DNA from: Candidatus Falkowbacteria bacterium RIFOXYA2_FULL_47_19
GTDB lineage: Bacteria > Patescibacteriota > Patescibacteriia > Patescibacteriales > UBA12075
Length of the DNA stretch: 64,000 bases
Direction of reading: 5' to 3'
NCBI GenBank assembly: GCA_001780275.1
Contig: MFGB01000020.1
Coordinates: 104,813-168,812, forward strand
Each line of letters opens with the position of its first letter. Position 1 is the first letter of the stretch. Made by a program: the position numbers and the translations under genes. Positions 3,427 to 50,260 of the stretch are shown here, piece by piece. Under the pieces are notes generated by a model. It saw nothing but the letters and a program-made list of their open reading frames with translations, searched no databases and was not told where the DNA came from.

Positions 3427-3801
3427 TTATTGCGTAATCCCCAATCCCTCAAAAACGAACCTGACCAAAGCGTAGGCGGAAAATATCACGACCAATCCGA
3501 TCGTGGCCCAGATTAGTATATTCTTGCCTTTCTGGACTTTTTCCGCGCTCCCGGCCGCCAGCATCCAGGTAAAACCGCCGTAAATGAACATGATCAGGGC
3601 CAGAGATCCGACTATACCCAAAAGACCCCTTATGGCTATACCGATCAACTCCTGCGGATTTTCAGCGGTAATTGGAGATTCAAGGCAGACCTGGGTAGCT
3701 CCGTCCTGGCTGGTGCCGGAACAATCCGCTAAAACCGGAACTGCATTTACGAAAAGCGAAAATACCATTATCGATATTATGCTTAATTTAAGAACCTGCA
3801 T
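3427..3801 (-). CDS. TrbC/VirB2-like pilin-family small membrane protein
   Basis: MQVLKLSIISIMVFSLFVNAVPVLA signal peptide. C-terminal LLGIVGSLALIMFIYGGFTWMLAAGSAEKVQKGK... matches the paralogs. I chose the start at 3801 because the longer ORF (to 3885) overlaps the upstream terminator hairpin. Confidence 0.6.
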   Translation of the reverse strand: MQVLKLSIISIMVFSLFVNAVPVLADCSGTSQDGATQVCLESPITAENPQELIGIAIRGLLGIVGSLALIMFIYGGFTWMLAAGSAEKVQKGKNILIWATIGLVVIFSAYALVRFVFEGLGITQ

Positions 3802-3842
3802 ATAGTACTGATGTTTATTATATAAGACTATTATTATTATAA

Positions 3843-3880
3843 CAAAAAAATAAAAAAGGGGGTAGATATGATCTACCCCC
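3843..3880 (-). terminator. Rho-independent terminator after the 3900-5036 gene
   Basis: Stem GGGGGTAGAT/ATCTACCCCC (3858-67 / 3871-80) with a long T-run in minus orientation. Confidence 0.75.
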
Positions 3881-3899
3881 GGCATAGGTTTCCTTAAGC

Positions 3900-7508: not shown

Positions 7509-7919
7509 ATGAAAAATAAAAAGATCAAATTGTTATTATTCATTATAATTCTAAACGCGGCCGGCTTATTTTTCGGGTCGGCGGCTTTGGCGCAAAGCGA
7601 GGCCGATAATCTTCTCTGGGGCGGATTTGAATCCAATGTACAGGAAACCACCGGACTCGGAAACGAAGATCCGCGAGAGATAGTGGCTCAAGTTATAAAT
7701 ATTCTTTTGGGTTTTTTGGGCATTATCGCGGTCCTGATCATTATTCTGGGCGGTTTCAGGTGGATGCTTTCCGGAGGCGACTCGGAACGGGCCGACGAAT
7801 CCCGGCGAATGATCGTTTCCGGTATTTTGGGCATTCTTCTTATTCTGGCCGCCTTCGCGATCGCCCAATTCGTCCTGAACTCGCTATATAACGCGACAAA
7901 TGCGATAAGCAAGTTATAA
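7509..7919 (+). CDS. TrbC/VirB2-like pilin-family small membrane protein
   Basis: Signal peptide, then ILLGFLGIIAVLIIILGGFRWMLSGGDSERADESRR...ILAAFAIAQFV. Third paralog. Confidence 0.6.
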   Translation: MKNKKIKLLLFIIILNAAGLFFGSAALAQSEADNLLWGGFESNVQETTGLGNEDPREIVAQVINILLGFLGIIAVLIIILGGFRWMLSGGDSERADESRRMIVSGILGILLILAAFAIAQFVLNSLYNATNAISKL

Positions 7920-20197: not shown

Positions 20198-20316
20198 GAA
20201 AATATTTTAATACCATCTTATAATTTCTTTAATTATGGGTTTGGAATACTTGGGTTCACAAACAAAAACACTGCCCTAGGTTGCGGTGTTTTTATTTTTA
20301 TCAAAAATACGGCGGG

Positions 20317-20373
20317 AATAAAAACACCCCGCTTATGAGTCAGCACGTTTTTTGTGCTTTCTCACAAGCGGGG
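20317..20373 (-). terminator. Terminator after the GC-rich gene
   Basis: Stem CCCCGCTT/AAGCGGGG (20327-34 / 20366-73) with an inner hairpin, followed by TGTTTTTATT in minus orientation. Confidence 0.6.
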
Positions 20374-20387
20374 GAAAGTTGTTACTG

Positions 20388-21194
20388 TTAGGCGGTGGCG
20401 GCCAGACGCTCCGCCCGTAGCCTTTTGGATATGGCCGGCGTCCGCCGGAGCAGGTCGGCAAATTCTACTTCGCCGTAGATGGCCCGGCCGAGTCGGATCC
20501 AATCCGGCTCATCCTCGTACACCTCCTCTGCCTTGGCATTATAGCGGAGAAAACGCTCGGCCTGCACCGAAATCTTAGGTACACAACCGCACCACTCTCG
20601 AATCCGGCGGCAAAGTGCCGGAACAAAGGAGTGAAGAAAAGCCGTGCCGTCATTGTCGGCCGTTTGGTGGTACAGGGCGATCAGGCCGTCCAAACCGAAA
20701 ATATCACGGTTGCGGGTCAGCGACTTCTCGACGTACACCTTGGCGGCGAGCATCATCAGCCGCGCCTTTTCCGGCTCATCGAAACGATCGGGGTCGCAAC
20801 CAACCGTCAGGAGAAGCTCGCGGGCGGCCCGACGAATGGCGTTTGGCCCGAGCTCCTTTGCGGTGTAGTCGGTGATAAGATCATCATCCCAATCATCATC
20901 TGGCACTATGCCTACGGCCCATTCCTCGAACGGAACCCAGCGCTTTCCCCGATACTCCGACGGGGAGCCGTAGGCGCGTTCATCCGGGTCCAGGCAATCT
21001 TCGGGCCAGTTATCAATGCTGCCGATGGCGGTGTGTAGTGGAACAATTCCGAGGTATTCGTCGGAGAGTCGGCAACCACAATCATCCTCCCCCCCCATAG
21101 TGCCCTGAAAGTCTTTCTCTTCGATCACAGCTTTTTCCCAGGGAAATTTTACCCTGGCGGACCTGACATTGGGTTTGCGTAAATAACGAGCCAT
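20388..21194 (-). CDS. Hypothetical acidic protein encoded by a strikingly GC-rich gene (likely horizontally acquired)
   Basis: 268-aa ORF with a GGGGGG RBS. Sampled stretches are roughly 60% GC against roughly 30-35% in the flanks. The spurious antisense ORFs here are a typical symptom of high GC. Confidence 0.6.
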   Translation of the reverse strand: MARYLRKPNVRSARVKFPWEKAVIEEKDFQGTMGGEDDCGCRLSDEYLGIVPLHTAIGSIDNWPEDCLDPDERAYGSPSEYRGKRWVPFEEWAVGIVPDDDWDDDLITDYTAKELGPNAIRRAARELLLTVGCDPDRFDEPEKARLMMLAAKVYVEKSLTRNRDIFGLDGLIALYHQTADNDGTAFLHSFVPALCRRIREWCGCVPKISVQAERFLRYNAKAEEVYEDEPDWIRLGRAIYGEVEFADLLRRTPAISKRLRAERLAATA

Positions 21195-39706: not shown

Positions 39707-40090
39707 TCATTTTTTCTCCGCCGCTGTTTCACCTTTAGACATTCGGCAGGTGCCGTTTAAGATAGCATTTTTTTCAATAGAAATTTTATTAGCCTCAATA
39801 TCGCCGAAAATTTTAGCGGTTGAAGAAATTTCAAGATAGCCATCGACTTTAATATTACCATGAATCTCCCCTCCGATTTTAGCTTCCTTGGCCTCAATTG
39901 TGGCTGTAACTTTGGCTTTATTACCGATCAATAGAAAATTACTGGTTTTTATGCTACCCTCGACCACACCTTCGATAATAATATTTCCCTGTCCATGAAA
40001 ATTACCCTTAACTTTTATTGATGGACCAATAATAGTTTCCGCTTCTTTGTAATTAATTTCGTTGTTTTCTTTATTAAACATATAAGGCAT
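39707..40090 (-). CDS. Bactofilin (polymer-forming cytoskeletal protein)
   Basis: Repetitive beta-helix pattern: IKVKGNFHGQGNIIIEGVVEGSIKT...AKIGGEIHGNIKVDGYLEISSTAKIFGDIEA. Confidence 0.8.
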   Translation of the reverse strand: MPYMFNKENNEINYKEAETIIGPSIKVKGNFHGQGNIIIEGVVEGSIKTSNFLLIGNKAKVTATIEAKEAKIGGEIHGNIKVDGYLEISSTAKIFGDIEANKISIEKNAILNGTCRMSKGETAAEKK

Positions 40091-40311
40091 ACGAATTAAT
40101 AGTGATAAATACTTATAATTCGTAAATAAATTATTTTTATAAAATATTTAAATATAAAATTAGTTTAGATTTATATTTATACTTTAATATAACTCTTAAT
40201 AAAAAACAAGGAATAAATATTGCCAAATTAGATTATTTATTATATCATGAAAACATATTTGTGCGTTGATATTTTAGGGTTATGGATATTTAGGTTTTAG
40301 TGGTTACATTA

Positions 40312-40383
40312 GCTCTTGTAGTTCAATGGATAGAACGGGGGTTTCCTAAACCCTAAATAGAGGTTCGATTCCTCTCAAGAGCA
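40312..40383 (+). tRNA. tRNA-Arg (anticodon CCT)
   Basis: Acceptor GCTCTTG/CAAGAGC, D-arm GTTC-AATGGATA-GAAC, anticodon loop TTCCTAA, T-arm AGAGG-TTCGATT-CCTCT. Confidence 0.9.
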
Positions 40384-40414
40384 CAAATATTTGCTAATAT
40401 TAAATAAAATATTA

Positions 40415-40488
40415 GGGCCATTAGCTCAGTTGGCTAGAGCGCTTCCATGGCATGGAAGAGGTCAAGGGTTCAAGTCCCTTATGGTCCA
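40415..40488 (+). tRNA. tRNA-Ala (anticodon GGC)
   Basis: Acceptor GGGCCAT/ATGGTCC with the G3:U70 identity pair. Anticodon arm CTTCC-ATGGCAT-GGAAG. T-loop TTCAAGT. Confidence 0.9.
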
Positions 40489-40603
40489 CTAATAAAATTT
40501 AACCCTTTCTTTTTATAGAAAGCTATAGAAAATATTTTAATTAAATATTTATTGTGATTATTTTAAAGTAGGTAAAACCACTATTGGCTAGAGGTGAATA
40601 ATA

Positions 40604-40765
40604 ATGAATCATTTTAAAACCGCTCTCCTTGATCCAGAAATAATTCAAAAATATAAAAACAAACCATTCCATCAAGCTATTTTACATGCTCTTTCAGTAT
40701 ATGTTGAGCAAGGAAATAATATTTCAGATTTACCATGGTTTATTTTTAAAAAATCACAAAAATAA
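40604..40765 (+). CDS. Small ORF (53 aa) with its own RBS and terminator
   Basis: GAGGTG sits 7 nt upstream of the ATG. MNHFKTALLDPEIIQKYKNKPFHQAILHALSVYVEQGNNISDLPWFIFKKSQK*. Terminator 23 nt downstream. Below the ORF-track cutoff. Confidence 0.45.
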   Translation: MNHFKTALLDPEIIQKYKNKPFHQAILHALSVYVEQGNNISDLPWFIFKKSQK

Positions 40766-40787
40766 TTTAATTAAAATTAAAAACACA

Positions 40788-40809
40788 AAACCCTGTTCAG
40801 GGTTTTTTA
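40788..40809 (+). terminator. Rho-independent terminator after the small ORF
   Basis: Stem AACCCT/AGGGTT, loop GTTC, then TTTTTT. Confidence 0.7.
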
Positions 40810-40810
40810 T

Positions 40811-40824
40811 GTTCCACGTAGAAC
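40811..40824. repeat. 14-bp palindromic site GTTCCACGTAGAAC (copy 1 of 3)
   Basis: Half-sites GTTCYAC/GTAGAAC. Related copies at 41294-41307 and 41320-41333. Confidence 0.6.
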
Positions 40825-40896
40825 TGTACAAGGTTTATTTCTAAATCAATTTTTTAAAACCTTTTAAAATTAAAGGGTTTTTAATTGTTTAAAAAA

Positions 40897-41140
40897 TCCA
40901 CCGGCGAATCCGGTCGTCTACGGTTACATGTTGCGGACGAAGTCAGATATGCTCATTATAAGAATAAACGGATTTGAAATATATCGATAGTGGGTTTACT
41001 TGTATAATGGTTGTTGTTTGTTATTCCCGCCTGCCTGCCAACAGGCGGGGGGTTGGCGGGATAAGCTATGTGCTATATGTGGTTGTATGTACGGATCAAT
41101 CCCGGATCCCCGATATACGCCCCGGTCGGATTCGGTGATG
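40897..41140. ncRNA. Candidate structured RNA/DNA element (~240 nt, GC-rich island in AT-rich DNA), class unknown
   Basis: Long-range closing helix CGAATCCG (40905-12) / CGGATTCG (41127-34), extended by CAC/GTG. Internal hairpin CCCGCC..GCCTG-CCAA-CAGGC..GGCGGG (41026-41060). No ORF of 60 aa or more on either strand. Confidence 0.35.
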
Positions 41141-41293
41141 ACAAATTAACTTTTTAAAAAAAGGGCGAAGTCTGTTAATTTATAACCCCACTGACTAAGT
41201 CGGTGTGTAGTTTAATTAAATTACTAATCAATAAATAATGGCTATTTATTTTTAAAGATTGTCCTAAAAACTATTTATTAATTATATACAAAA

Positions 41294-41307
41294 GTTCCAC
41301 AAAGAAC
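41294..41307. repeat. 14-bp site GTTCCACAAAGAAC (copy 2 of 3)
   Basis: Direct reading. Confidence 0.5.
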
Positions 41308-41319
41308 AATTATCAAAAA

Positions 41320-41333
41320 GTTCTGCGTAGAAC
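41320..41333. repeat. 14-bp palindromic site GTTCTGCGTAGAAC (copy 3 of 3)
   Basis: Direct reading. 26 bp start-to-start from copy 2. Confidence 0.6.
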
Positions 41334-41732
41334 AATTTAAATATAACATTTTTATCTAATATTCAAATAACGTTAAAATTATTAAAATTTAAATTAAATT
41401 AAGGCTGACTTAAAAATTGTACAATAAATATTAATACAATTTAATTATTTGTAGGCAAGGCATTATTAATAGAATAAATAGATATTATTTAAAATTTATT
41501 TTTAAAATATCATAAAAAATCAAAAAATAATGACAGTGGAAAAGTCTACAAAAATGTGGACTATTAATTTATATTTATACTAATATTAAATAAAAAATAA
41601 GCAGGGGATAAGATGAGGATAAGCTATTATAATATAAAAATTAAACTTATTTAAATAAAATTGATTATTTTAATATTAGCAAAAAGATAAAAATACTAAA
41701 AATATAAATAACCCAATAATAGAAAAAATATT

Positions 41733-41761
41733 TTGACAGTCTTATTTTTTTATAATATAAT
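41733..41761 (+). promoter_or_regulatory. Consensus sigma70-type promoter TTGACA-N17-TATAAT
   Basis: TTGACA at 41733-38 and TATAAT at 41756-61. Predicts a ~125-nt 5' UTR for the 41893 gene. Confidence 0.6.
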
Positions 41762-41792
41762 ATTAATGTAAGCATTATCAAATAATTTTCCG

Positions 41793-41885
41793 CACCTTTT
41801 TAGCAGTTCGTATCCCACTCCGAAAGCATCCCCTAATACTGTTTCACGGCGGTGTCCCGCCAAACAGTATTAAAGGTGTGGGATA
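41793..41885 (+). promoter_or_regulatory. Nested-hairpin 5' leader (riboswitch-like candidate) ending 7 nt before the start codon
   Basis: Outer stem TATCCCAC (41811-18) / GTGGGATA (41878-85). Inner 10-bp stem AATACTGTTT (41835-44) / AAACAGTATT (41862-71) capped by GGCGG-TGTC-CCGCC. Alternative pairing CACCTTT (41793-99) / AAAGGTG (41872-78). Confidence 0.45.
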
Positions 41886-41892
41886 AAAAAAT

Positions 41893-42354
41893 ATGCGGCA
41901 CGTGGCTCAACAAATCGGACCATCTGTCACATTTTTAAACAGGAACTGGAAATTTTTACGTTTTTGGTTCAAGATCTATACCTTGGCGGTATGGTGTGGT
42001 TTAATTATTGATTTTTTCACTAATTCGCTTACGTTTACCAGTGGACTACTGGTATTTTATTTAGCCTTTCTTTCGTTATATAATGTCAGTAAAGAGGTTG
42101 ATAGATGGCTTACTAATCTTCATAATTGGCGACTCGGTGAAATTTGGGTGGCGGTATGGCTGGTTACTAATTTAGTGATCGGCTATATCTATATGATGCA
42201 CCCCGATGAATTTAAGGGTGGGGCAGAGGCATTAAATCAGATAAGTTCAGTAACGATCGGTGTTCTGGCTAATTTTATCGGATCAGAGGTTTCTAAAAGG
42301 ATTTATAAGATCAAACGGCTTAAAAAAGCGAATCGTATCATTAGAATAATTTAA
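41893..42354 (+). CDS. Hypothetical 4-TM membrane protein
   Basis: 153-aa ORF with a terminator at 42375-97. No family recognised. Confidence 0.5.
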   Translation: MRHVAQQIGPSVTFLNRNWKFLRFWFKIYTLAVWCGLIIDFFTNSLTFTSGLLVFYLAFLSLYNVSKEVDRWLTNLHNWRLGEIWVAVWLVTNLVIGYIYMMHPDEFKGGAEALNQISSVTIGVLANFIGSEVSKRIYKIKRLKKANRIIRII

Positions 42355-43475: not shown

Positions 43476-43527
43476 TTAAGGGGAGCGCCAACGAACGGCG
43501 GCTGCACGCGTTTAAACAGGGATTAAT

Positions 43528-44070
43528 TTAATCGTTTTCACTTCTTAATTTATCCAGACGCTCTTTTATTTTTTTATTTTCTTCTTCCAGTATTTTTTCT
43601 TTGATGTCTCGCGCCATTCCTAAGCGTAAAGTATAAAAATCGTCGAGGGTTTTATCAAGCTCCATGGAACGTTCTTTGTATTTCTGTTTTGACGATTTTA
43701 ATTCTTCGGTATGGCGGCGCAACTCCAGGTTTTTATTTTCTATGTCGCTATTTAATTTTTTAAGATCCGCTGATTTTCGCATCAAGTCGTATATTAATCG
43801 GTTGTTGATCTTTAAAACCGTTACAACGAAAATAGCGCCAAAGAAAAAAATAACGCTAACCAATAATTCGTTCGTCGTATGGACGGGGGAGTAGATCAGA
43901 CGGGCAAAGAACGCCAGGTAACCGAAAATAAACAAGCAGATCAGAGCCAGTAGGACCCAGTAATGGTTGGCGGCGGTATTGTTTTTTACCGAGTTATTCA
44001 ACTTATAACAAAGCCAGGTTGAATAAAAAAGAATAATCGCGCCGGCGGACACAAGAATCATGTTAAACAT
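43528..44070 (-). CDS. Hypothetical membrane protein with a C-terminal coiled coil
   Basis: 180 aa. About 4 N-terminal TM helices, then a charged heptad-like region. Confidence 0.45.
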   Translation of the reverse strand: MFNMILVSAGAIILFYSTWLCYKLNNSVKNNTAANHYWVLLALICLFIFGYLAFFARLIYSPVHTTNELLVSVIFFFGAIFVVTVLKINNRLIYDLMRKSADLKKLNSDIENKNLELRRHTEELKSSKQKYKERSMELDKTLDDFYTLRLGMARDIKEKILEEENKKIKERLDKLRSEND

Positions 44071-44104
44071 AGAACATTTATTAAATTATAATTTTTTATA
44101 AAAA

Positions 44105-44698
44105 TTATTTTATAATAAAAGAGTCTGAATAAATTATTTCCGGCTCGAAAAGAAGTTGGGCGTTATCGTGCAAATTAAAACTAAACTGGAACGCGAGCCG
44201 GTATTCGCCGCTTTCAATACGCCGGACGACAGACGCTTCGCTAAAACCACCTTCTTTGAATGGGCAAATTTTCTGATCCCAGGCTGTGCTTATTTTTAAA
44301 CCAGTCCCGAGCGCCATAGGCGGAACCTGCTCATAAAGAGCGATGTAGCAACTATCGCCAAGCCGTTCATCGGTTAATTGAAAACCTTCGCGTCCGCCAT
44401 AACCGAATTTTTTCCACTCGCTTTTTTCTAAATATTCTATTTCCCAAACCCTGTCGCCGCCCGGATAATAAAAAATATTTTCTTCCAGGCCGTTTTTAAT
44501 GATGATATTAATTGTTTCGCCGGAGCTGTAAATTTTTTTATCAGTGGAGATGCTTATTTCCGCGGCCGGCGGCGCGGGCAGTAGCGGCGGCGTCGGCGGA
44601 GTGATCTTATTTTGCCGAAAAAACAAAAAAATAAAAATAAAAATCAATAGCGCGATGATAATAATAACAGACAATTTAAATTTTTTATTTTTTGCCAT
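44105..44698 (-). CDS. Hypothetical membrane-anchored/secreted protein with a Pro-rich linker
   Basis: 197 aa. N-terminal TM helix, then PPTPPLLPAPPAAE. Confidence 0.45.
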   Translation of the reverse strand: MAKNKKFKLSVIIIIALLIFIFIFLFFRQNKITPPTPPLLPAPPAAEISISTDKKIYSSGETINIIIKNGLEENIFYYPGGDRVWEIEYLEKSEWKKFGYGGREGFQLTDERLGDSCYIALYEQVPPMALGTGLKISTAWDQKICPFKEGGFSEASVVRRIESGEYRLAFQFSFNLHDNAQLLFEPEIIYSDSFIIK

Positions 44699-44834
44699 AT
44701 TTATTAAATTAAGAATTATTATGTAAAATCAATTTTACGTCTTCTTAAGTCAGTCGGCGGGATTGAGCCGCTTATTGCGGCGTTATATGGTGTAAAAAAT
44801 ACGTATATTTCGTACAACAGCTTCGGGATATCTG

Positions 44835-44899
44835 AAATTCAGTTGGCGTAATCTGCTAAAATTGTGCGAACGCACTAGCAGATTATGGAAACTGAATTT
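44835..44899. repeat. Long imperfect hairpin in the spacer downstream of the 44928 gene
   Basis: AAATTCAGTT/AACTGAATTT (44835-44 / 44890-99), ATCTGCTA/TAGCAGAT (44851-58 / 44876-83), GTGCG-AA-CGCAC (44864-75). Confidence 0.7.
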
Positions 44900-44927
44900 G
44901 GGAAAGCGATCGTCAAAAATAAAATAT

Positions 44928-45476
44928 TTAATCTTTGATCTCGTATTCCCAGCCAGCTCGCCATTTTTTTGCTTTACGCCAATCTTCCTCGATAGCCGTC
45001 TCCCAGGTTTTGTCTCTAAGAACAACATCTAAAGCTAGTTGCGGTGCTTGATGGGCGACGATGGCAACGCGTTTTCCGTTATAATTAATTTTTAAATATT
45101 CACAAAACTCTCTAATACGATTTTCAACATCTTTATAGCTTTCACCGTTTGGAAAAGGAGTATCAACATAGTCATTCATTTTGTTTTTAAAAACTTTCGC
45201 TTCTTTTTGCGTATAGTCGCCATAATTTACTTCTCTGAGTCTTTTGTCGCGAATTATTTCATATTTGTCGCCAAAGGCAAGTTCGGCGGAATTAATGGCG
45301 CGTTGTAAATCGGAACAAAAGACGATGTCATATGCCTGCTTCGCAACTAGCTGTCCAAGGTTTTTGGCCTGCTGTTTTCCTATCTCGGATAATTCACCCG
45401 GTGCCCAACCAGTTGCTAGGTCATGTTCGTTGTCGGTAGTGGTGCCGTGGACAAAGTATGTGATTTTAACACTCAT
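44928..45476 (-). CDS. Histidine phosphatase (phosphoglycerate-mutase-like) family protein
   Basis: MSVKITYFVHGTTTDN (RHG-like motif) and later AIVAHQAPQ. I chose the ATG at 45476. The track ORF starts at a TTG at 45491. Confidence 0.6.
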   Translation of the reverse strand: MSVKITYFVHGTTTDNEHDLATGWAPGELSEIGKQQAKNLGQLVAKQAYDIVFCSDLQRAINSAELAFGDKYEIIRDKRLREVNYGDYTQKEAKVFKNKMNDYVDTPFPNGESYKDVENRIREFCEYLKINYNGKRVAIVAHQAPQLALDVVLRDKTWETAIEEDWRKAKKWRAGWEYEIKD

Positions 45477-45660
45477 AAGATTAGAGATCAAATATTTTAT
45501 TAAGTTCGCTGACCAGATACGCCGTGTTGTATGTAGTAAATTTTTTATCTTTTTGCAGTAGTATTAAATCTTGTCTACTAGTAGAGAAATTTGATTTTTT
45601 GTTTTAAAAAAATAAAAGAGGGGATGTGAAGGGGATGAATTCTTTTTTCAAAACTCCTTA

Positions 45661-46167
45661 TTATTTATTTTTTATCCATTTCTTCGTTTCCTGATAGCTT
45701 ATTTTACACCGAACTTTAAAGTCATCATCTGAAATATGCAAAGCAATATCGTTATTGTAAGTGTTTAAAAAAATATCGTGATCATTTATTATCTTATCTA
45801 TAATTTTTAAAGATTCCAAATAATCTTTTGACTTATAAAGACGTGTCAAAAATTCCTTGCTTAAGTCAATGCTAATTATAAAATAGCGGTACTCATTTAA
45901 AGTCAACTGCTTTTTAAATTCTTCCCATTCTCTGTCTACGCTTAGGTCACAAATAAAAGAAACTCCATTTTCCATAATTTCTTTCAATCTTTCATTACGC
46001 CTTTTAACGTGTTCGTTAGAATCAAATATTCCTAAATCTTCTGTAACTTCGCTACGAATAGCGTCATTGTTAAAAACTGGTAGATTCAGTTTTGTGCTTA
46101 AATAATTTGTAATGGGTGTTTTGGAGCTACCAACAGCTCCTGCAAAAGTAATACAAATTTTATTCAT
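45661..46167 (-). CDS. P-loop kinase/NTPase-like protein (AAA_33/zeta-toxin-like fold)
   Basis: Walker A FAGAVGSSKT near the N-terminus, 168 aa. Confidence 0.45.
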   Translation of the reverse strand: MNKICITFAGAVGSSKTPITNYLSTKLNLPVFNNDAIRSEVTEDLGIFDSNEHVKRRNERLKEIMENGVSFICDLSVDREWEEFKKQLTLNEYRYFIISIDLSKEFLTRLYKSKDYLESLKIIDKIINDHDIFLNTYNNDIALHISDDDFKVRCKISYQETKKWIKNK

Positions 46168-46291
46168 AAATTTAAATTTAATTTGGAGCGAAGCGACTTC
46201 AACTTTCCCCTTTAAATTATTTAAAAAACAAAACTTTCGGTCGTGACTAAATCGTCAAACCTTGAATTCAAGAAAGATAAAAATTTATTTC

Positions 46292-46391
46292 GTCTAACGG
46301 CTTCGGGATAAGCGAAGTCCTGAGAAGTGAAGTGAATCGGGATTTGGGAAAATGCCGAGCCGAGGCATTTTCCGGTTATCACTTGTTAAGC
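46292..46391. repeat. Structured spacer segment bounded by integron-core-like heptamers GTCTAAC ... GTTAAGC
   Basis: GTCTAAC (46292-98) fits RYYYAAC and GTTAAGC (46385-91) fits GTTRRRY. The enclosed imperfect hairpin pairs AAGTGA..GGAAAATGCC with GGCATTTTCC..TCACTT (46330-84) and has a bulge. A side hairpin (46299-320) makes it non-canonical for attC. Confidence 0.3.
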
Positions 46392-46470
46392 GAGGGCTCG
46401 GCTGAATTCTTTATTATTGAGAAGAGTCTGACGTAAGCGCAGCGTCCGTATGAGTTTTTGAAAATAACAT

Positions 46471-46944
46471 TTATAATTTTTGGCTATTTAAATACTCAAA
46501 GAATTCTTTACCCCAAGCCAGAATAATTCCATTCTCTTTAAGAACTTTTAGTGATTTATTTTTGAACTTCAAATAATCATTAAGAAATTTTGCGGCAATG
46601 TCTGGCCAAATATCTCCAATAACACAATCATACTTTTTATCTTCGTCGATATTAAAAAAATCACCAATTATTAATTCGCCAAAAATTTGGCCGGACATTG
46701 CTTTCATTTTTTCTATAACCTCAGGATATTTTTCTACAGTCGTGACAGATTTTACTTTTGGATTTTTTAGCAGGTACTCGGGAAGTAAGCCCAGGCCATA
46801 TCCTGCAACCAAAACATCGCCACATGCACCATCGGCCAATTCTTGCTGAAGCTCTTTTTCTTGCGGAGTGTCCCACATCCAAAGATAGTCATCCAGATAC
46901 ATAAATCTGTGTCCTTTGTGCTGCAAAATTTCTATTTGGGCCAT
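46471..46944 (-). CDS. Class I SAM-dependent methyltransferase / spermidine-synthase-like fold protein
   Basis: VLVAGYGLGLL (GxGxG-like), VEKYPEVI, VIGDIW. Confidence 0.45.
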   Translation of the reverse strand: MAQIEILQHKGHRFMYLDDYLWMWDTPQEKELQQELADGACGDVLVAGYGLGLLPEYLLKNPKVKSVTTVEKYPEVIEKMKAMSGQIFGELIIGDFFNIDEDKKYDCVIGDIWPDIAAKFLNDYLKFKNKSLKVLKENGIILAWGKEFFEYLNSQKL

Positions 46945-47125
46945 AAAATAAATGTTATCTTAAAAATTTCGTATCTTTTAGTTGTGTCTGAAGTTTCTGT
47001 TCCTCTTCTTTTAAAAATTAATAATGAAAAAAGGAATAGAAATTTGGGTCGGAATCCGCCTTGGGCGGATTGAGCCGCTAATCGCGATGTTAGATGATGT
47101 TGGTGTGCGGTCGTGAATATTGCAA

Positions 47126-47506
47126 TTATTTGTTATCTAGATAATCAATTACTTTATCAAGTATCGTATTGCACTTATCAATTTCTTCCCGAGTCGTGAA
47201 TTTACCTTCGCTAAAGCCAAATTTAAATTTTAAAAACTCTTTTACGTCTTTTTTTAATGACTCATCACGGATCATGCCGTCCATTAAAGCACTTTCAAGA
47301 TCGTACTTTAAACCAGAGATGTAATTACCTTGGCACTTGAACATATTGTAACGTGGGTCGTTAGAAGGGATAATATTTCTTACATCTTCTTCTGGTAAAT
47401 CATCAAGGTGTTCATCTCGGAGCCAATGGAAACGCTCCTGATACCATTTTTTATCAAAAAGAGTTTCTTTTTCTTTATTTTTTAAATTTGGCTGTTCGTG
47501 TTTCAT
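47126..47506 (-). CDS. Hypothetical protein (126 aa)
   Basis: Clean ORF in the cassette-like array. No family recognised. Confidence 0.4.
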   Translation of the reverse strand: MKHEQPNLKNKEKETLFDKKWYQERFHWLRDEHLDDLPEEDVRNIIPSNDPRYNMFKCQGNYISGLKYDLESALMDGMIRDESLKKDVKEFLKFKFGFSEGKFTTREEIDKCNTILDKVIDYLDNK

Positions 47507-47675
47507 ACAAAGGAATTTGTTTTTATAGTATTAGCACACCAATTTCACATAACATCGGGCTTTAGGGAAGTTTTTTGCGTAGCAAAAATTTGGGAGAGTG
47601 AAGTGCAACAAGCAAACTATTTAAGCCCCGCTAAATAAGGTAAGGACGAAGTCCGAAAGCGCAACGTCACCTGAG

Positions 47676-48203
47676 TTATTTTTCAGCCCCGTAGAATTCA
47701 TCGAAATACTTCTTTATACCTTCAACAAAAGGTGGTGTGTATATGTCAGGATTTTCAATAATATCTTTTTTTAATTCATCTGCATTAATCCATTTAATTT
47801 TTGAAATTTCTCTTGCATCGGGATTGATACCATCATCAGATTTACCAACAAAAACACAATGCCAAGCTTTATCAAATGTGTCAAAAAACGGATATGTAAA
47901 TAATCTTTTTACATTTGTTGAAATTCCAATTTCCTCTTGCATTTCTTTTTGAATACAATCTTCATAAGATTCATTAGCCACAGTTCCACTAACCGAATAT
48001 GTAAAAAGATTTGGGTACCATTTTTTTGTTGGCGCCCTATGTTGCAAGAGAATTTCGTTTTTTGAATTAAAAAGTATTAAATGAGATGAACGATGAATAT
48101 ATTTCCCTGTATAAAAATCATCTCTTGGCCTTAAGCCAATTTGATTATCGTTTTTATCAACTTCGATATTTTGCTCTACCATTTTTAATTTAAATCCTGA
48201 CAT
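47676..48203 (-). CDS. NUDIX hydrolase (isopentenyl-diphosphate-isomerase-like subfamily)
   Basis: Nudix box GTVANESYEDCIQKEMQEEIGI. N-terminal VDKNDNQIG...HRSSHLILFN resembles IDI-type Nudix proteins. Confidence 0.7.
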   Translation of the reverse strand: MSGFKLKMVEQNIEVDKNDNQIGLRPRDDFYTGKYIHRSSHLILFNSKNEILLQHRAPTKKWYPNLFTYSVSGTVANESYEDCIQKEMQEEIGISTNVKRLFTYPFFDTFDKAWHCVFVGKSDDGINPDAREISKIKWINADELKKDIIENPDIYTPPFVEGIKKYFDEFYGAEK

Positions 48204-48229
48204 ATATATAAATTTATTTCACTGAACGA

Positions 48230-48316
48230 CCTGTCCGCCTCTGGCGGAAGGGTTTGCCCGCGGCTGGAGAGCATTATACGAGCACCGACCCGCCATAGGC
48301 GGGGAGGGCGGAGCGA
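48230..48316. repeat. GC-rich repeat R1a (~87 nt), about 90% identical to 48980-49064
   Basis: CCTGTCCGCCTCTGGCGGAAGGG(T/C)TTGCCCGCGGC...GAGCACCGACCCG(C/T)CAT(A/G)GGCGGGGAGGGCGGAGCGA. Confidence 0.85.
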
Positions 48317-48376
48317 TGGCGGAGGAGTAATAAAAAATTTCGCTCCTTATTTATAATTTTGGCAATTTGTTAATAT

Positions 48377-48781
48377 TTAAGAAGAAACATTAATTTTTCC
48401 ACCCTCTATATTATCTATTGTGTTTTCTAATTTTGATTCAGCTTCATCCAGACCACCGAGAATATCGCTAATTTTTTCATTCTCGAAATTAAAGACTGAT
48501 TTTTTATCAGAAATTCCACGAACTGCATTACCCAATTCTTTTCCCCACCCCTGTTCTTCTTTTGGCACAAAATCATCAATGTTGTCTTCGATTTCTTTCC
48601 AGGTTTTATCTTTAATACTTTTACCATGCCTTTTTATTAACATGTTAAAACCCGATTTCATAACTTTAACGTGATCTAAAGTTTTTTTTGCCTCCTTTAA
48701 TGTTTTTTGCTCTTCGGCTATTTTTCGAGAAAAATTTAGCTCTTTTTCGTTTTTTGGTTGAAAAGTTGTTTCTTTTTCCAT
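48377..48781 (-). CDS. Hypothetical protein (134 aa, charged)
   Basis: Clean ORF. Bracketed by an 18/19 inverted repeat (48353-71 / 48801-19). Confidence 0.4.
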   Translation of the reverse strand: MEKETTFQPKNEKELNFSRKIAEEQKTLKEAKKTLDHVKVMKSGFNMLIKRHGKSIKDKTWKEIEDNIDDFVPKEEQGWGKELGNAVRGISDKKSVFNFENEKISDILGGLDEAESKLENTIDNIEGGKINVSS

Positions 48782-48854
48782 AGATTTGTTATTTGTGACA
48801 AATAAATTGCCAAAATTATTAATTAATATAGTGATTTTTTATTATTGCGTATAA

Positions 48855-49120
48855 CGGGCCGCGGGATTTGCGATGCGCGTGGCTCCGCCTCGCAGGCGGG
48901 GACAGGCGTTTCGCATATCCCGAGTAGGGCGTGTTCGCTCCGGCTGCCCGCAGGGCAGGCGAGCGGCAGCGGCGAACAGCCTGTCCGCCTCTGGCGGAAG
49001 GGCTTGCCCGCGGCCGGAGCATTATGCGAGCACCGACCCGTCATGGGCGGGGAGGGCGGAGCGATTTTTTCCGAACCGTGGTAATATCTGAGGTTTTGTC
49101 ACCTCCTTATTGAATTTATT
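48855..49120 (+). ncRNA. Candidate multi-hairpin structured RNA (~265 nt, very GC-rich), contains repeat R1b (48980-49064); class unknown, strand tentative
   Basis: Long-range GGCCGCGGG (48857-65) / CCCGCGGCC (49007-15). Hairpins: GGGATTTGCG/CGCATATCCC (48863-921) with inner CCGCC-TCGCA-GGCGG; GTTCGC..CTGCCC-GCA-GGGCAG..GCGAAC (48933-77); CCGCC-TCT-GGCGG (48985-97); CCCGTC-ATG-GGCGGG (49037-51). A terminator-like GAGGT-TTTGTC-ACCTC plus a T-rich tail (49090-49120) occurs on the plus strand. Confidence 0.35.
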
Positions 49121-49154
49121 TGGTAATAAAATTTGGGTGAATCCGATTAATTAA

Positions 49155-49607
49155 TTATTTTATTATGTTCTCAAGGTTTCCGTTGATAATAATCGGTTTT
49201 AAATCTTCTAACTCGTCAACATAATGCATTCTTTCACTTCGTTCAGGAATTGGATTATAAAGGTATATTGTTTTCTCATGTCCGTAAGCAAAGCCCATTT
49301 CCATTAAAGTGCTACCACCAATGTAATTATCTATACCTTTCTTTTCCATATTCAGAACAAGTATAGCATCAGAATGTTTTATATAATTCCAATATCTTTT
49401 TATCATATCAACAGGCTCAGCGTTCCTAAGTCCAATATCCCCACCTTCTTCCTTGGCTTTGAGATAATCTTCAAATTTTAGTTTGCCGTCAATCATCTTT
49501 TGAGTAAAAAGTGGGATATTAACCGTCCATCCTTTATCCTCCAATTCTTTTTTAAGCTCGATTATCTTCGGGGAGAAATCGACGCTCGAACATATTGTTA
49601 TAGTCAT
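49155..49607 (-). CDS. Nucleoside 2-deoxyribosyltransferase-like (NDT/DUF4406-like) protein
   Basis: MTITICSSVDF...ILVLNMEKKGIDNYIGGSTLMEMGFAYGHEKTIYLYNPIPE resembles the NDT-like Rossmann family. I chose the start at 49607. The longer track ORF (49682) adds an implausible leader that overlaps the upstream gene. Confidence 0.45.
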   Translation of the reverse strand: MTITICSSVDFSPKIIELKKELEDKGWTVNIPLFTQKMIDGKLKFEDYLKAKEEGGDIGLRNAEPVDMIKRYWNYIKHSDAILVLNMEKKGIDNYIGGSTLMEMGFAYGHEKTIYLYNPIPERSERMHYVDELEDLKPIIINGNLENIIK

Positions 49608-49666
49608 ACTAAATAAAAAAATAATAATCTGGCGTAGCCAGTTATGCCGTGATAGGCGAAGTAATA

Positions 49667-49993
49667 TTAACATTTTCCACAAGTGCCCAGACCAGAATTG
49701 TTAGCTTTTTGGCACACCCATCTGAGTATTCCAGAATATCCTTTTTCGGGCTCTACTTCATCTAAAGAGGCAATTGATTTATCTATTGGCAACCCGCTAT
49801 TTTCGCAGATTCCTTTAAATGGATAACGTTTTTTTGCAGAAATCCGTCCTTTGTTTCTGTGTTTGGTCGCAATTACACCAATTCTCTTTGCAACTGCGAC
49901 AGGATTATGCGCAGAAACAATCGCCTCTTTAATTTGCCCCTGAATGCATTCCGTGAGCCCCTTATCGTGTTGGTCAAGTTTTAATGCTGTCAT
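49667..49993 (-). CDS. Hypothetical protein (108 aa, C-terminal Cys cluster)
   Basis: Clean ORF. Its 5' UTR and its stop-codon region form a 17/18-nt inverted repeat (49663-80 / 49994-50010). Confidence 0.4.
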   Translation of the reverse strand: MTALKLDQHDKGLTECIQGQIKEAIVSAHNPVAVAKRIGVIATKHRNKGRISAKKRYPFKGICENSGLPIDKSIASLDEVEPEKGYSGILRWVCQKANNSGLGTCGKC

Positions 49994-50260
49994 GTGGAAA
50001 TGTTAATATTATTTAGCCTATCAAGTTATATGTGAACTTATTGCGGATTGTTTAAAAATTAGTTAAAATATGTTTATTAACTTCTTAGCATAAGGCTTTA
50101 TGCCGGGAAATATTTATATCCGAGCAAGGATTTCGTGTAGAAATTTTTCAGGGAAATGCGGATTCGTAATTTTAGCGGGAAAACCAGTAGGGCCTATTTG
50201 TATTATAACAGGAATTTATAAGTGATTACAATGCTAAAACCCTCGATGTTCAACTGAATT

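Follow-up and report, generated by a model that had tools for sequence, protein, structure and literature searches.

The window analyzed here, a stretch of 64,000 nucleotides, is matched by contig MFGG01000008 (GCA_001778165.1), a MAG from Rifle-aquifer groundwater, and related samples give identical contigs. Homologs of the window's proteins are named Patescibacteria, Falkowbacteria or Parcubacteria. The element that we studied lies in the AT-rich spacer that separates tRNA-Ala from an ORF of 153 aa; the gene order around it, and the coordinates of the features discussed below, are collected in Table 1. A homolog search with the 153-aa ORF returned two clusters only, and Pfam found no transposase, integrase, Y1 or RT domain in the window ORFs of at least 100 aa. 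Within the first 8 kb of the window, the ORFs at 968-1411, 3427-3885 and 7509-7919 match the type IV secretion system pilin family (PF18895).

Table 1. Features of the locus and of the corresponding sites in related contigs (window positions unless a contig is named)
Feature	Position	Strand	Description
dnaN-dnaA	33.2-35.7 kb	-	
rpmH-rnpA-yidD-yidC		+	followed by racemase and DAGK-like kinase genes
Bactofilin	39707-40090	-	
tRNA-Arg(CCT)	40312-84		
tRNA-Ala(GGC)	40415-89		
AT-rich spacer	between tRNA-Ala and 153-aa ORF		1.4 kb
53-aa ORF	40604-40765	+	ribosome-binding site present; intrinsic terminator at 40787-40806 (terminator scan)
GTTC-N6-GAAC box	40811-40824		GTTCCACGTAGAAC, upstream of the element; two more downstream, 41294-41307 and 41320-41333
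AT-rich direct repeat	40881-40896 / 41146-41161		TTAATTGTTTAAAAAA / TTAACTTTTTAAAAAA; 14 of 16 positions match
Fragment A	40897-41012	+	end motif CCGGCGAATCCG (40901-12), small hairpin UCGUC/GACGA, AT-rich stretch
Unit B-C	41013-41150	+	138-nt inverted-repeat unit; left end TTTGTTATTCCCGCC
GC hairpin	41021-41064	+	TTATTCCCGCC...GGCGGGATAA; forms the left end of unit B-C
7-bp hairpin	41189-41216	+	CACTGAC-TAA-GTCGGTG, then TGTAGTTTAAT; kept downstream of the L040 element
Box-rich module, window	40811-40824, 41294-41307, 41320-41333, 41543-41562, 41575-41625		
Box-rich module, relatives	L040 3537-4275; L048 4410-4900; L050 4440-4770; L053 1860-2060		
Leader, window	41790-41892		directly upstream of the 153-aa ORF
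Leader, relatives	L020 604-720; L021 944-1050; L040 3032-3148	L040 minus	directly upstream of the 153-aa ORF
153-aa ORF	41893-42354		no Pfam domains; trxB next

A first-pass annotation of this DNA had described a GC-rich structured element, closed by a long-range helix, inside an ORF-free region. The label 'GC-rich' holds relative to the surrounding intergenic DNA: the element has about 45% GC, compared with 16-25% in the rest of the spacer and 41.6% in the window overall. There is indeed no ORF of 60 aa or more in 40100-41890, but the region does contain a gene of 53 aa. Its homolog search returned only itself, and it is 63% identical to a 55-aa ORF that occupies the same position in the related contig L040. 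We conclude that the 'ORF-free' region has a real small gene on its 5' side.

The non-coding DNA around and downstream of tRNA-Arg and tRNA-Ala forms a module that lies about 5 kb from dnaA and is kept in all relatives, even in those without trxB. Three of the four window matches to the box GTTC-N6-GAAC fall in this intergenic region, where the entire window would be expected to contain 0.46. Conserved copies of the boxes are present in contigs L020, L021, L040, L041 and L050, with seven in L040 and four in L041. Further components of the module are AGTCYACA-N4-TGTRGACT palindromes, GCTAATATTAAATAA and GGGGATAA(G). The module may possibly represent an origin- or partition-type region, or else an operator array.

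The structural claims made for the element fared unevenly. All the sequences that the annotation quoted were found where it had placed them, and the long-range helix between CGAATCCG (40905-12) and CGGATTCG (41127-34) is present, but its 8-bp stem is at chance level: 46 of 300 dinucleotide shuffles of 40890-41150 (15%) had a Watson-Crick stem of at least 8 bp enclosing at least 100 nt. This 261-nt segment folds no better than dinucleotide shuffles on either strand (-79 kcal/mol, z -0.91, on the plus strand; -66.7 kcal/mol, z -1.55, on the minus strand). Among the noted features, only the central hairpin at 41021-64 is clearly non-random. On the plus strand it has a predicted energy of -27.2 kcal/mol and a z-score of -3.7, with none of 200 shuffles as good, and on the minus strand its z-score is -2.5. 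The extended -10-like sequence TGTATAAT is present at 41001-08, inside fragment A and 7 nt ahead of the part that is homologous to L040. In summary, the observation is real, yet as 'structure' it is largely at chance level.

Short words in the element had also been compared with the spacers of a cassette array further along the window. The word GGACGAAGTC does occur both at 40935-44 and at 47644-53, but its frequency is that of chance; with up to one mismatch allowed it was found 4 times, compared with 2.25 expected, and 19 of 100 shuffles equalled this. The words GGCGAAGTC at 41164-72 and ACTAAGTCGGTG at 41194-205 were confirmed. The short-word matches as a whole are at chance level, and the annotation itself had judged them uncompelling. 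The suggested kinship with the cassette spacers was not borne out, as no spacer is significantly similar to the element. Compared with each other, the spacers reach z-scores of 4.4-35; the best match of the element to them has a z-score of 3.6 and lies in an AT-rich stretch.

The array region has features of its own. A run of small minus-strand ORFs at 43500-50250 is absent from L050, where rnhB directly follows trxB, implying that the run is a variable island. It encodes a histidine phosphatase, a NUDIX protein and several ORFs without a Pfam family, and no integrase or integron features were found in it. The island's spacers are mosaically similar to each other (z 4-35) and share the recurring sequence AATTTGGG. 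It also carries a very GC-rich direct repeat of about 95 nt (48224-48317 and 48974-49065, 91-94% identical, with GC up to 79% at 48941). This repeat is built of several CCGCC-loop-GGCGG hairpins, and its copies lie in adjacent spacers that flank a 134-aa ORF (48377-48781).

What the closing helix consists of became apparent from the ends of the element. Alignment of the ends of the window element and of the elements in relatives gives a common end motif, approximately TTTGTCATTCCCGCGAATCCGCC. On this alignment, the two ends of 41013-41150 are inverted copies of the motif, and the fragment 40897-41012 carries a third. Both arms of the closing helix fall in inverted copies of the end-motif sequence GCGAATCCG; the helix is thus the pairing of fragment A's GCGAATCCG with the right-end copy. 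The right end of unit B-C reads TTTGTCATCACCGAATCCGACC on the opposite strand, with the inverted motif GTCATCACCGAATCCGACC, and in the alignment the two ends of the unit are inverted copies of TTTGTYATYMCCG..AATCCG, imperfect and with indels. In the fold the two ends are paired (z -1.7). Fragment A folds no better than shuffles (z +0.6), and nhmmer found no homology to 40897-41013 in relatives. Its 12-mer CCGGCGAATCCG recurs unchanged where the L040 element has its 5' end, an identity for which we estimate a chance expectation of about 2e-4.

The edges of the element are less sharply defined. The direct repeat that brackets it (40881-96 and 41146-61) is not significant, its score being equalled by 33 of 500 shuffles. 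Either a target duplication or the terminus of the repeat itself could account for it, and its right copy, which aligns with the flank of the copy in contig L044, may belong to the element. Further downstream, the terminator scan classed the hairpin at 41189-41216 as a weak terminator-like site without a clean T-run. Compared with L040, this hairpin has one compensatory change, from G-C to A-U, and one U.G pair on the plus strand.

It is the comparison with relatives that decides between repeat DNA and a conserved RNA gene. Fifteen contigs that share the window's flanking proteins show no variation over the region (100% identity); more divergent relatives were gathered through homologs of the 153-aa ORF and of bactofilin. 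Contig L040 is fully syntenic with the window (bactofilin 89% and 153-aa ORF 90% identical) and has an element of about 100 nt in the same place; two GTTC-N6-GAAC boxes enclose it, and the conserved hairpin follows about 45 nt downstream. The L040 element starts with GTTATTCCGGCGAATCCGCC and ends with CCGGGTGGATTC. It shares with the window element the end motifs (GGCGAATCCG / GGATTC) and the start TTTGTTATTCC, and the downstream hairpin and GGTGTGTAGTTTAAT are also common to both, but the interior of the window element cannot be aligned to that of the L040 element. nhmmer aligned L040 3979-3832 to window 41014-41215 with an E-value of 0.026, and L020 80-133 to window 41088-41147 with an E-value of 0.044. 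From a functional structured RNA one would expect conservation no lower than that of the neighboring proteins (89-90% identical). The element falls short of this.

Presence of the element also varies. L041, which is 97-99% identical to L040 and belongs to the same species, lacks 443 nt that include the element. This difference, within L040 3612-4161, is bounded by direct repeats of about 140 nt, each of which ends in a GTTC-N6-GAAC box, implying that the box array expands and contracts by recombination between repeats. In L021, where the 153-aa ORF is 74% identical, 126 nt lie between two boxes and the element is absent. In L048, L050 and L053 (bactofilin 73-77% identical) the 53-aa ORF, the element and the 153-aa ORF are all absent, and the tRNA region directly precedes trxB or rnhB. 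The presence or absence of the segment from tRNA-Ala to trxB, which the annotation had proposed to check, is therefore variable, with the whole segment absent in distant relatives.

A different kind of element is found in L052 (contig JAANSX010064274.1, GCA_024449895.1). At 520-850 on the minus strand, downstream of the real tRNA-Ala, there is a tRNA-Ala pseudogene (z 4.4 against tRNA-Ala) with a GC-rich hairpin in place of the D-arm region and a second hairpin in the variable-loop region. Upstream of the pseudogene, 13 nt of the tRNA 5' end are duplicated, and a further GC-rich insert comes after them. A tRNA-derived origin holds for this L052 element; for the window element (z 0.3) we rejected it.

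The end motif is not confined to one site. Contig L044 ends in a copy without mismatches, which lies in the racemase-yidC spacer; in both the window and L040 that spacer is empty, AT-rich and about 110-130 nt long. The L040 element has the motif, with two mismatches, at its 5' end, and in diverged form the motif occurs at window position 41017 and, on the opposite strand, at the 3' end of the window element. The 3' end of the window element aligns with the end of L044 over 40 nt (z 6.4, 0 of 500 shuffles as good), and window 41089-41145 aligns equally well with L020 81-131 (z 6.4, 0 of 500); for the downstream hairpin region and L040 the z-score is 5.8, with 1 of 500 shuffles as good. L020 itself starts with a related unit of 135 nt, which lies just upstream of the last box, a position different from that of the L040 element. 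Members of the family are thus present at three or more positions in close relatives. The start of L020 and the end of L044 are both places where contigs of one sample break inside such units, as assemblies do at repeats. End-to-end folding of the units gave z-scores of -5.5 for L020, -2.7 for L040 and -1.7 for window unit B-C.

Wider searches for further copies gave little. The 64-kb window contains no second copy of the element, which speaks against a repeat; an apparent copy at 20311-20326 was rejected because it is the terminator hairpin of a gene ending at 20388. Exact scans, which detect near-identical copies only, returned only the same locus or chance matches in GC-rich genomes: the 5' 20-mer was scanned against JGI metagenomes, and the 3' 20-mer against the GTDB species genomes (the source MAG is not among them). 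BLAST of the element against phage and plasmid collections gave no match, and a scan of viral contigs for the end motif found none. A 25-nt identity to L022, an unrelated contig of 52% GC, lies in frame in a 70-aa ORF (NPPANPVV); there is no similarity beyond it, and we attribute it to chance among hundreds of Gb. A literature search on MITEs or intergenic repeats in Patescibacteria found nothing relevant.

These observations lead us to conclude, with a probability of roughly one half, that the element is non-coding intergenic repeat DNA of a REPIN-, MITE- or NIME-like kind. This reading draws on the elements with different interiors at the same place, their presence and absence between relatives, the dispersal of the end motif, the contig breaks, the end-to-end hairpins and the lack of an alternative identity; against it, the inverted ends are short and imperfect. 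Most likely, what lies here is not a conserved RNA gene but a fairly ordinary, small inverted-repeat DNA that changes fast, in one copy or two. It would be a small hairpin-forming unit bounded by inverted repeats, one of a low-copy family in the AT-rich intergenic DNA of a Patescibacteria lineage. An enzyme acting in trans from another locus, such as a transposase, a RAYT-type Y1 enzyme or an IS110-type recombinase, might spread or rearrange units of this kind, which might also be reshuffled through recombination between repeats. At this locus the element would be a passenger with no required function, and its hairpins would fold in RNA upon read-through transcription, as a side effect.

Membership in any of the known classes is not established. 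REPINs are doublets of REP sequences that form hairpins and are mobilized by RAYT Y1 transposases, and they usually occur in tens to hundreds of near-identical copies. Our units resemble them in being short, GC-rich and palindromic, in lying in intergenic DNA without coding capacity, in varying in presence between close strains and in their arrangement, in which two inverted units and a spacer form one long hairpin (window 41013-41150 and L020 1-135). They differ in that only a handful of diverged copies was found, none of them elsewhere in the 64 kb, that no RAYT gene is present among the window ORFs of at least 100 aa, and that the spacer, at about 70 nt, is longer than is typical of REPINs. 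The Correia element of Neisseria, a MITE, offers a second comparison (PMC1797815). Shared with it are a length of 100-260 nt, inverted ends, an AT-rich insertion context, the lack of an ORF, a possible outward or internal promoter-like -10 box and occurrence at different loci in related genomes, whereas here the ends are short and imperfect and the flanking direct repeat is not significant.

The third comparison is with NIMEs, in which the 20-bp sequence dRS3 (ATTCCC-N8-GGGAAT) flanks RS units of 50-150 bp; these are reported as Neisseria-specific, and phage integration into dRS3 provides a link to a recombinase (PMC1797815). As in NIMEs, GC-rich palindromic units here are separated by spacers of about 70-110 nt that contain more AT, so that the GC content follows a 'wave', and the number of units in arrays varies between strains. 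The recombinase link has no counterpart here and, unlike in NIMEs, the pattern ATTCCC-N(4-30)-GGGAAT is absent from the whole window, element included. The terminal unit of L020 1-135, GTCATTCCCGCGCAAGCGGGAATCCAGGAG, is in contrast an exact match to the dRS3 pattern ATTCCC-N8-GGGAAT, a type of unit so far reported only in Neisseria arrays. Over its first 34 nt the L020 unit shows 91% identity to a sequence that N. gonorrhoeae carries at 40 or more places, and over its first 27-34 nt it matches multi-copy sequences of several bacteria and a Microcystis phage at 91-96% identity. Matches to the palindrome were found at 40 or more places each in N. gonorrhoeae and Photobacterium and at 14 places in Microcystis phage MaAM05, with further matches in Azospirillum, Cupriavidus and Legionella. 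Judged by these matches, the dRS3-like palindrome of L020 appears to be cosmopolitan.

An unclassified non-coding RNA was the first of the three options that the annotation had raised, and it found no support in the absence of an Rfam match, the lack of excess folding energy, the unconserved interior in L040 and the absence of the element from L041. The Rfam 15 models, which covered RNase P, SRP, 6S, tmRNA, ribozymes, HEARO and OLE, gave no match at the gathering score and none at E<=10 apart from a 17.9-bit chance match. By eye, GGACGAAGUC resembles CR-I of RNase P; this candidate was rejected because the closing helix would not enclose the P4 partner and none of the models matched.

We nevertheless considered a more specific version, namely a fast-evolving, lineage-specific small RNA on the plus strand that would begin near 41015, a few bases after TGTATAAT, include the GC hairpins and terminate with the hairpin at 41189-41205. 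Many sRNAs do evolve fast. The L040-homologous part, 41014-41215, coincides with such a putative transcript, and in L040 a TATAAT lies 5 nt upstream of the TTTGTTATTCC motif, but TATAAT is common in AT-rich spacer DNA. The downstream hairpin is kept with its compensatory change, and its U.G pair works on the plus strand only; however, beyond this 7-bp hairpin there is no structure in common with L040, and it lacks the clean T-run that real terminators here have (e.g., 40787-806). The comparison of folds among homologs that the annotation had put forward covered two or three sequences and yielded, with L040, this hairpin alone, with its single compensatory pair. The plus-strand fold of the element is 12 kcal/mol more stable than that of the minus strand, although the fold z-scores are not significant. 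One position in the stem, compared by eye, changes from G.U in one element to C-G in the other between the window and L040, with both sides changed and pairing kept, and the mismatches in the end stems are G.U on the plus strand. Such pairing-preserving changes fit selection on a plus-strand fold as well as they fit a repeat. Against a small RNA stand also the absence of the element from L041, L021 and all more distant relatives, and the occurrence of the end motif at the unrelated locus in L044; only two sequences can be compared. Overall, we consider a small RNA gene unlikely.

A bolder variant, which we regard as quite unlikely, holds that NIME- or REPIN-like palindromic GC units of this lineage, recognized by a putative recombinase, rapidly remodel the conserved, box-rich and possibly origin-proximal region, or that 41013-41216 is a self-promoted, structured sRNA specific to the lineage.

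The third of the annotation's options, a remnant of an integrated or mobile element, came closest to our result. What stands is that the segment from tRNA-Ala to trxB is lineage-specific and that the inverted-repeat family recurs at another locus; what does not is the expected signature, since neither an integrase nor a repeat of the tRNA 3' end was found. We distinguish this from a scar in the strict sense, such as an att site left behind, or one end of an island since lost, where an element had once integrated next to tRNA-Ala. The segment between tRNA-Ala and the 153-aa ORF is absent in distant relatives, where trxB or rnhB comes directly after the tRNA region, and L052 has tRNA-Ala-derived debris at the locus. 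However, the tRNA-Ala 3' end has no second copy in the window with up to three mismatches, Pfam detected no integrase in the window, and the element has no similarity to either adjacent tRNA (z 0.3). Moreover, the surrounding boxes and palindromes are ancestral to the locus rather than imported, and the end motif was seen once, in L044, at a locus unrelated to tRNA genes. A scar is for these reasons improbable.

A functional DNA structure, such as a cruciform or a protein-binding site, in a box-rich and maybe oriC- or partition-type locus about 5 kb from dnaA is in our view very improbable. The element does lie between GTTC-N6-GAAC boxes, the palindrome module downstream of tRNA-Ala is the part kept in all relatives, even those without trxB, and the sign of the GC skew switches from minus to plus across the window's middle. 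But L021, L041, L048, L050 and L053 keep the module while lacking the GC element, classical DnaA boxes are not enriched there, and the origin nature of the region is itself putative. Least probable of all is a decayed protein-coding fragment or a chance structure in a patch of average GC: the element's GC of about 45% equals that of coding DNA in the genome, and its whole fold and long-range stem are at chance level, but all six reading frames are broken by stops with no domain-like stretch, the sole in-frame outside similarity is the 25-nt identity to a small ORF in the unrelated 52%-GC contig, and the end motifs recur in relatives far above chance.

A by-product of the comparison with relatives is, to us, more interesting than the element. 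A perfect TTGACA-17-TATAAT promoter (41733-61) lies upstream of the leader of the 153-aa ORF, which is conserved in relatives. Within the leader, CCGCACCTTT pairs over a long range with AAAGGTGTGGG, and the latter includes the ribosome-binding site. This helix encloses the invariant CCCACTCCGAAAGCATCCCC and a hairpin whose sequence is different in every relative yet paired. RNAalifold predicted 27 pairs, 8 of them with compensatory changes, and an alternative pairing of CCCAC with GTGGG could form. Comparison with Rfam gave no match at E<=10. The sequence is a candidate for a new riboswitch-like or protein-binding translational leader.

In summary, the first-pass observation is partly confirmed and its interpretation partly supported. 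The long-range helix alone does not make the element fit for annotation as a new RNA gene. The surrounding locus merits more attention than the element itself, with its array of palindromic boxes near dnaA and its covarying leader that sequesters a ribosome-binding site ahead of a lineage-specific membrane protein gene. If the element is repeat DNA, as we favor, it would by itself add little; it would mean that very small Patescibacteria genomes also carry small non-autonomous repeats, and that these are a source of strain-level differences in intergenic DNA.
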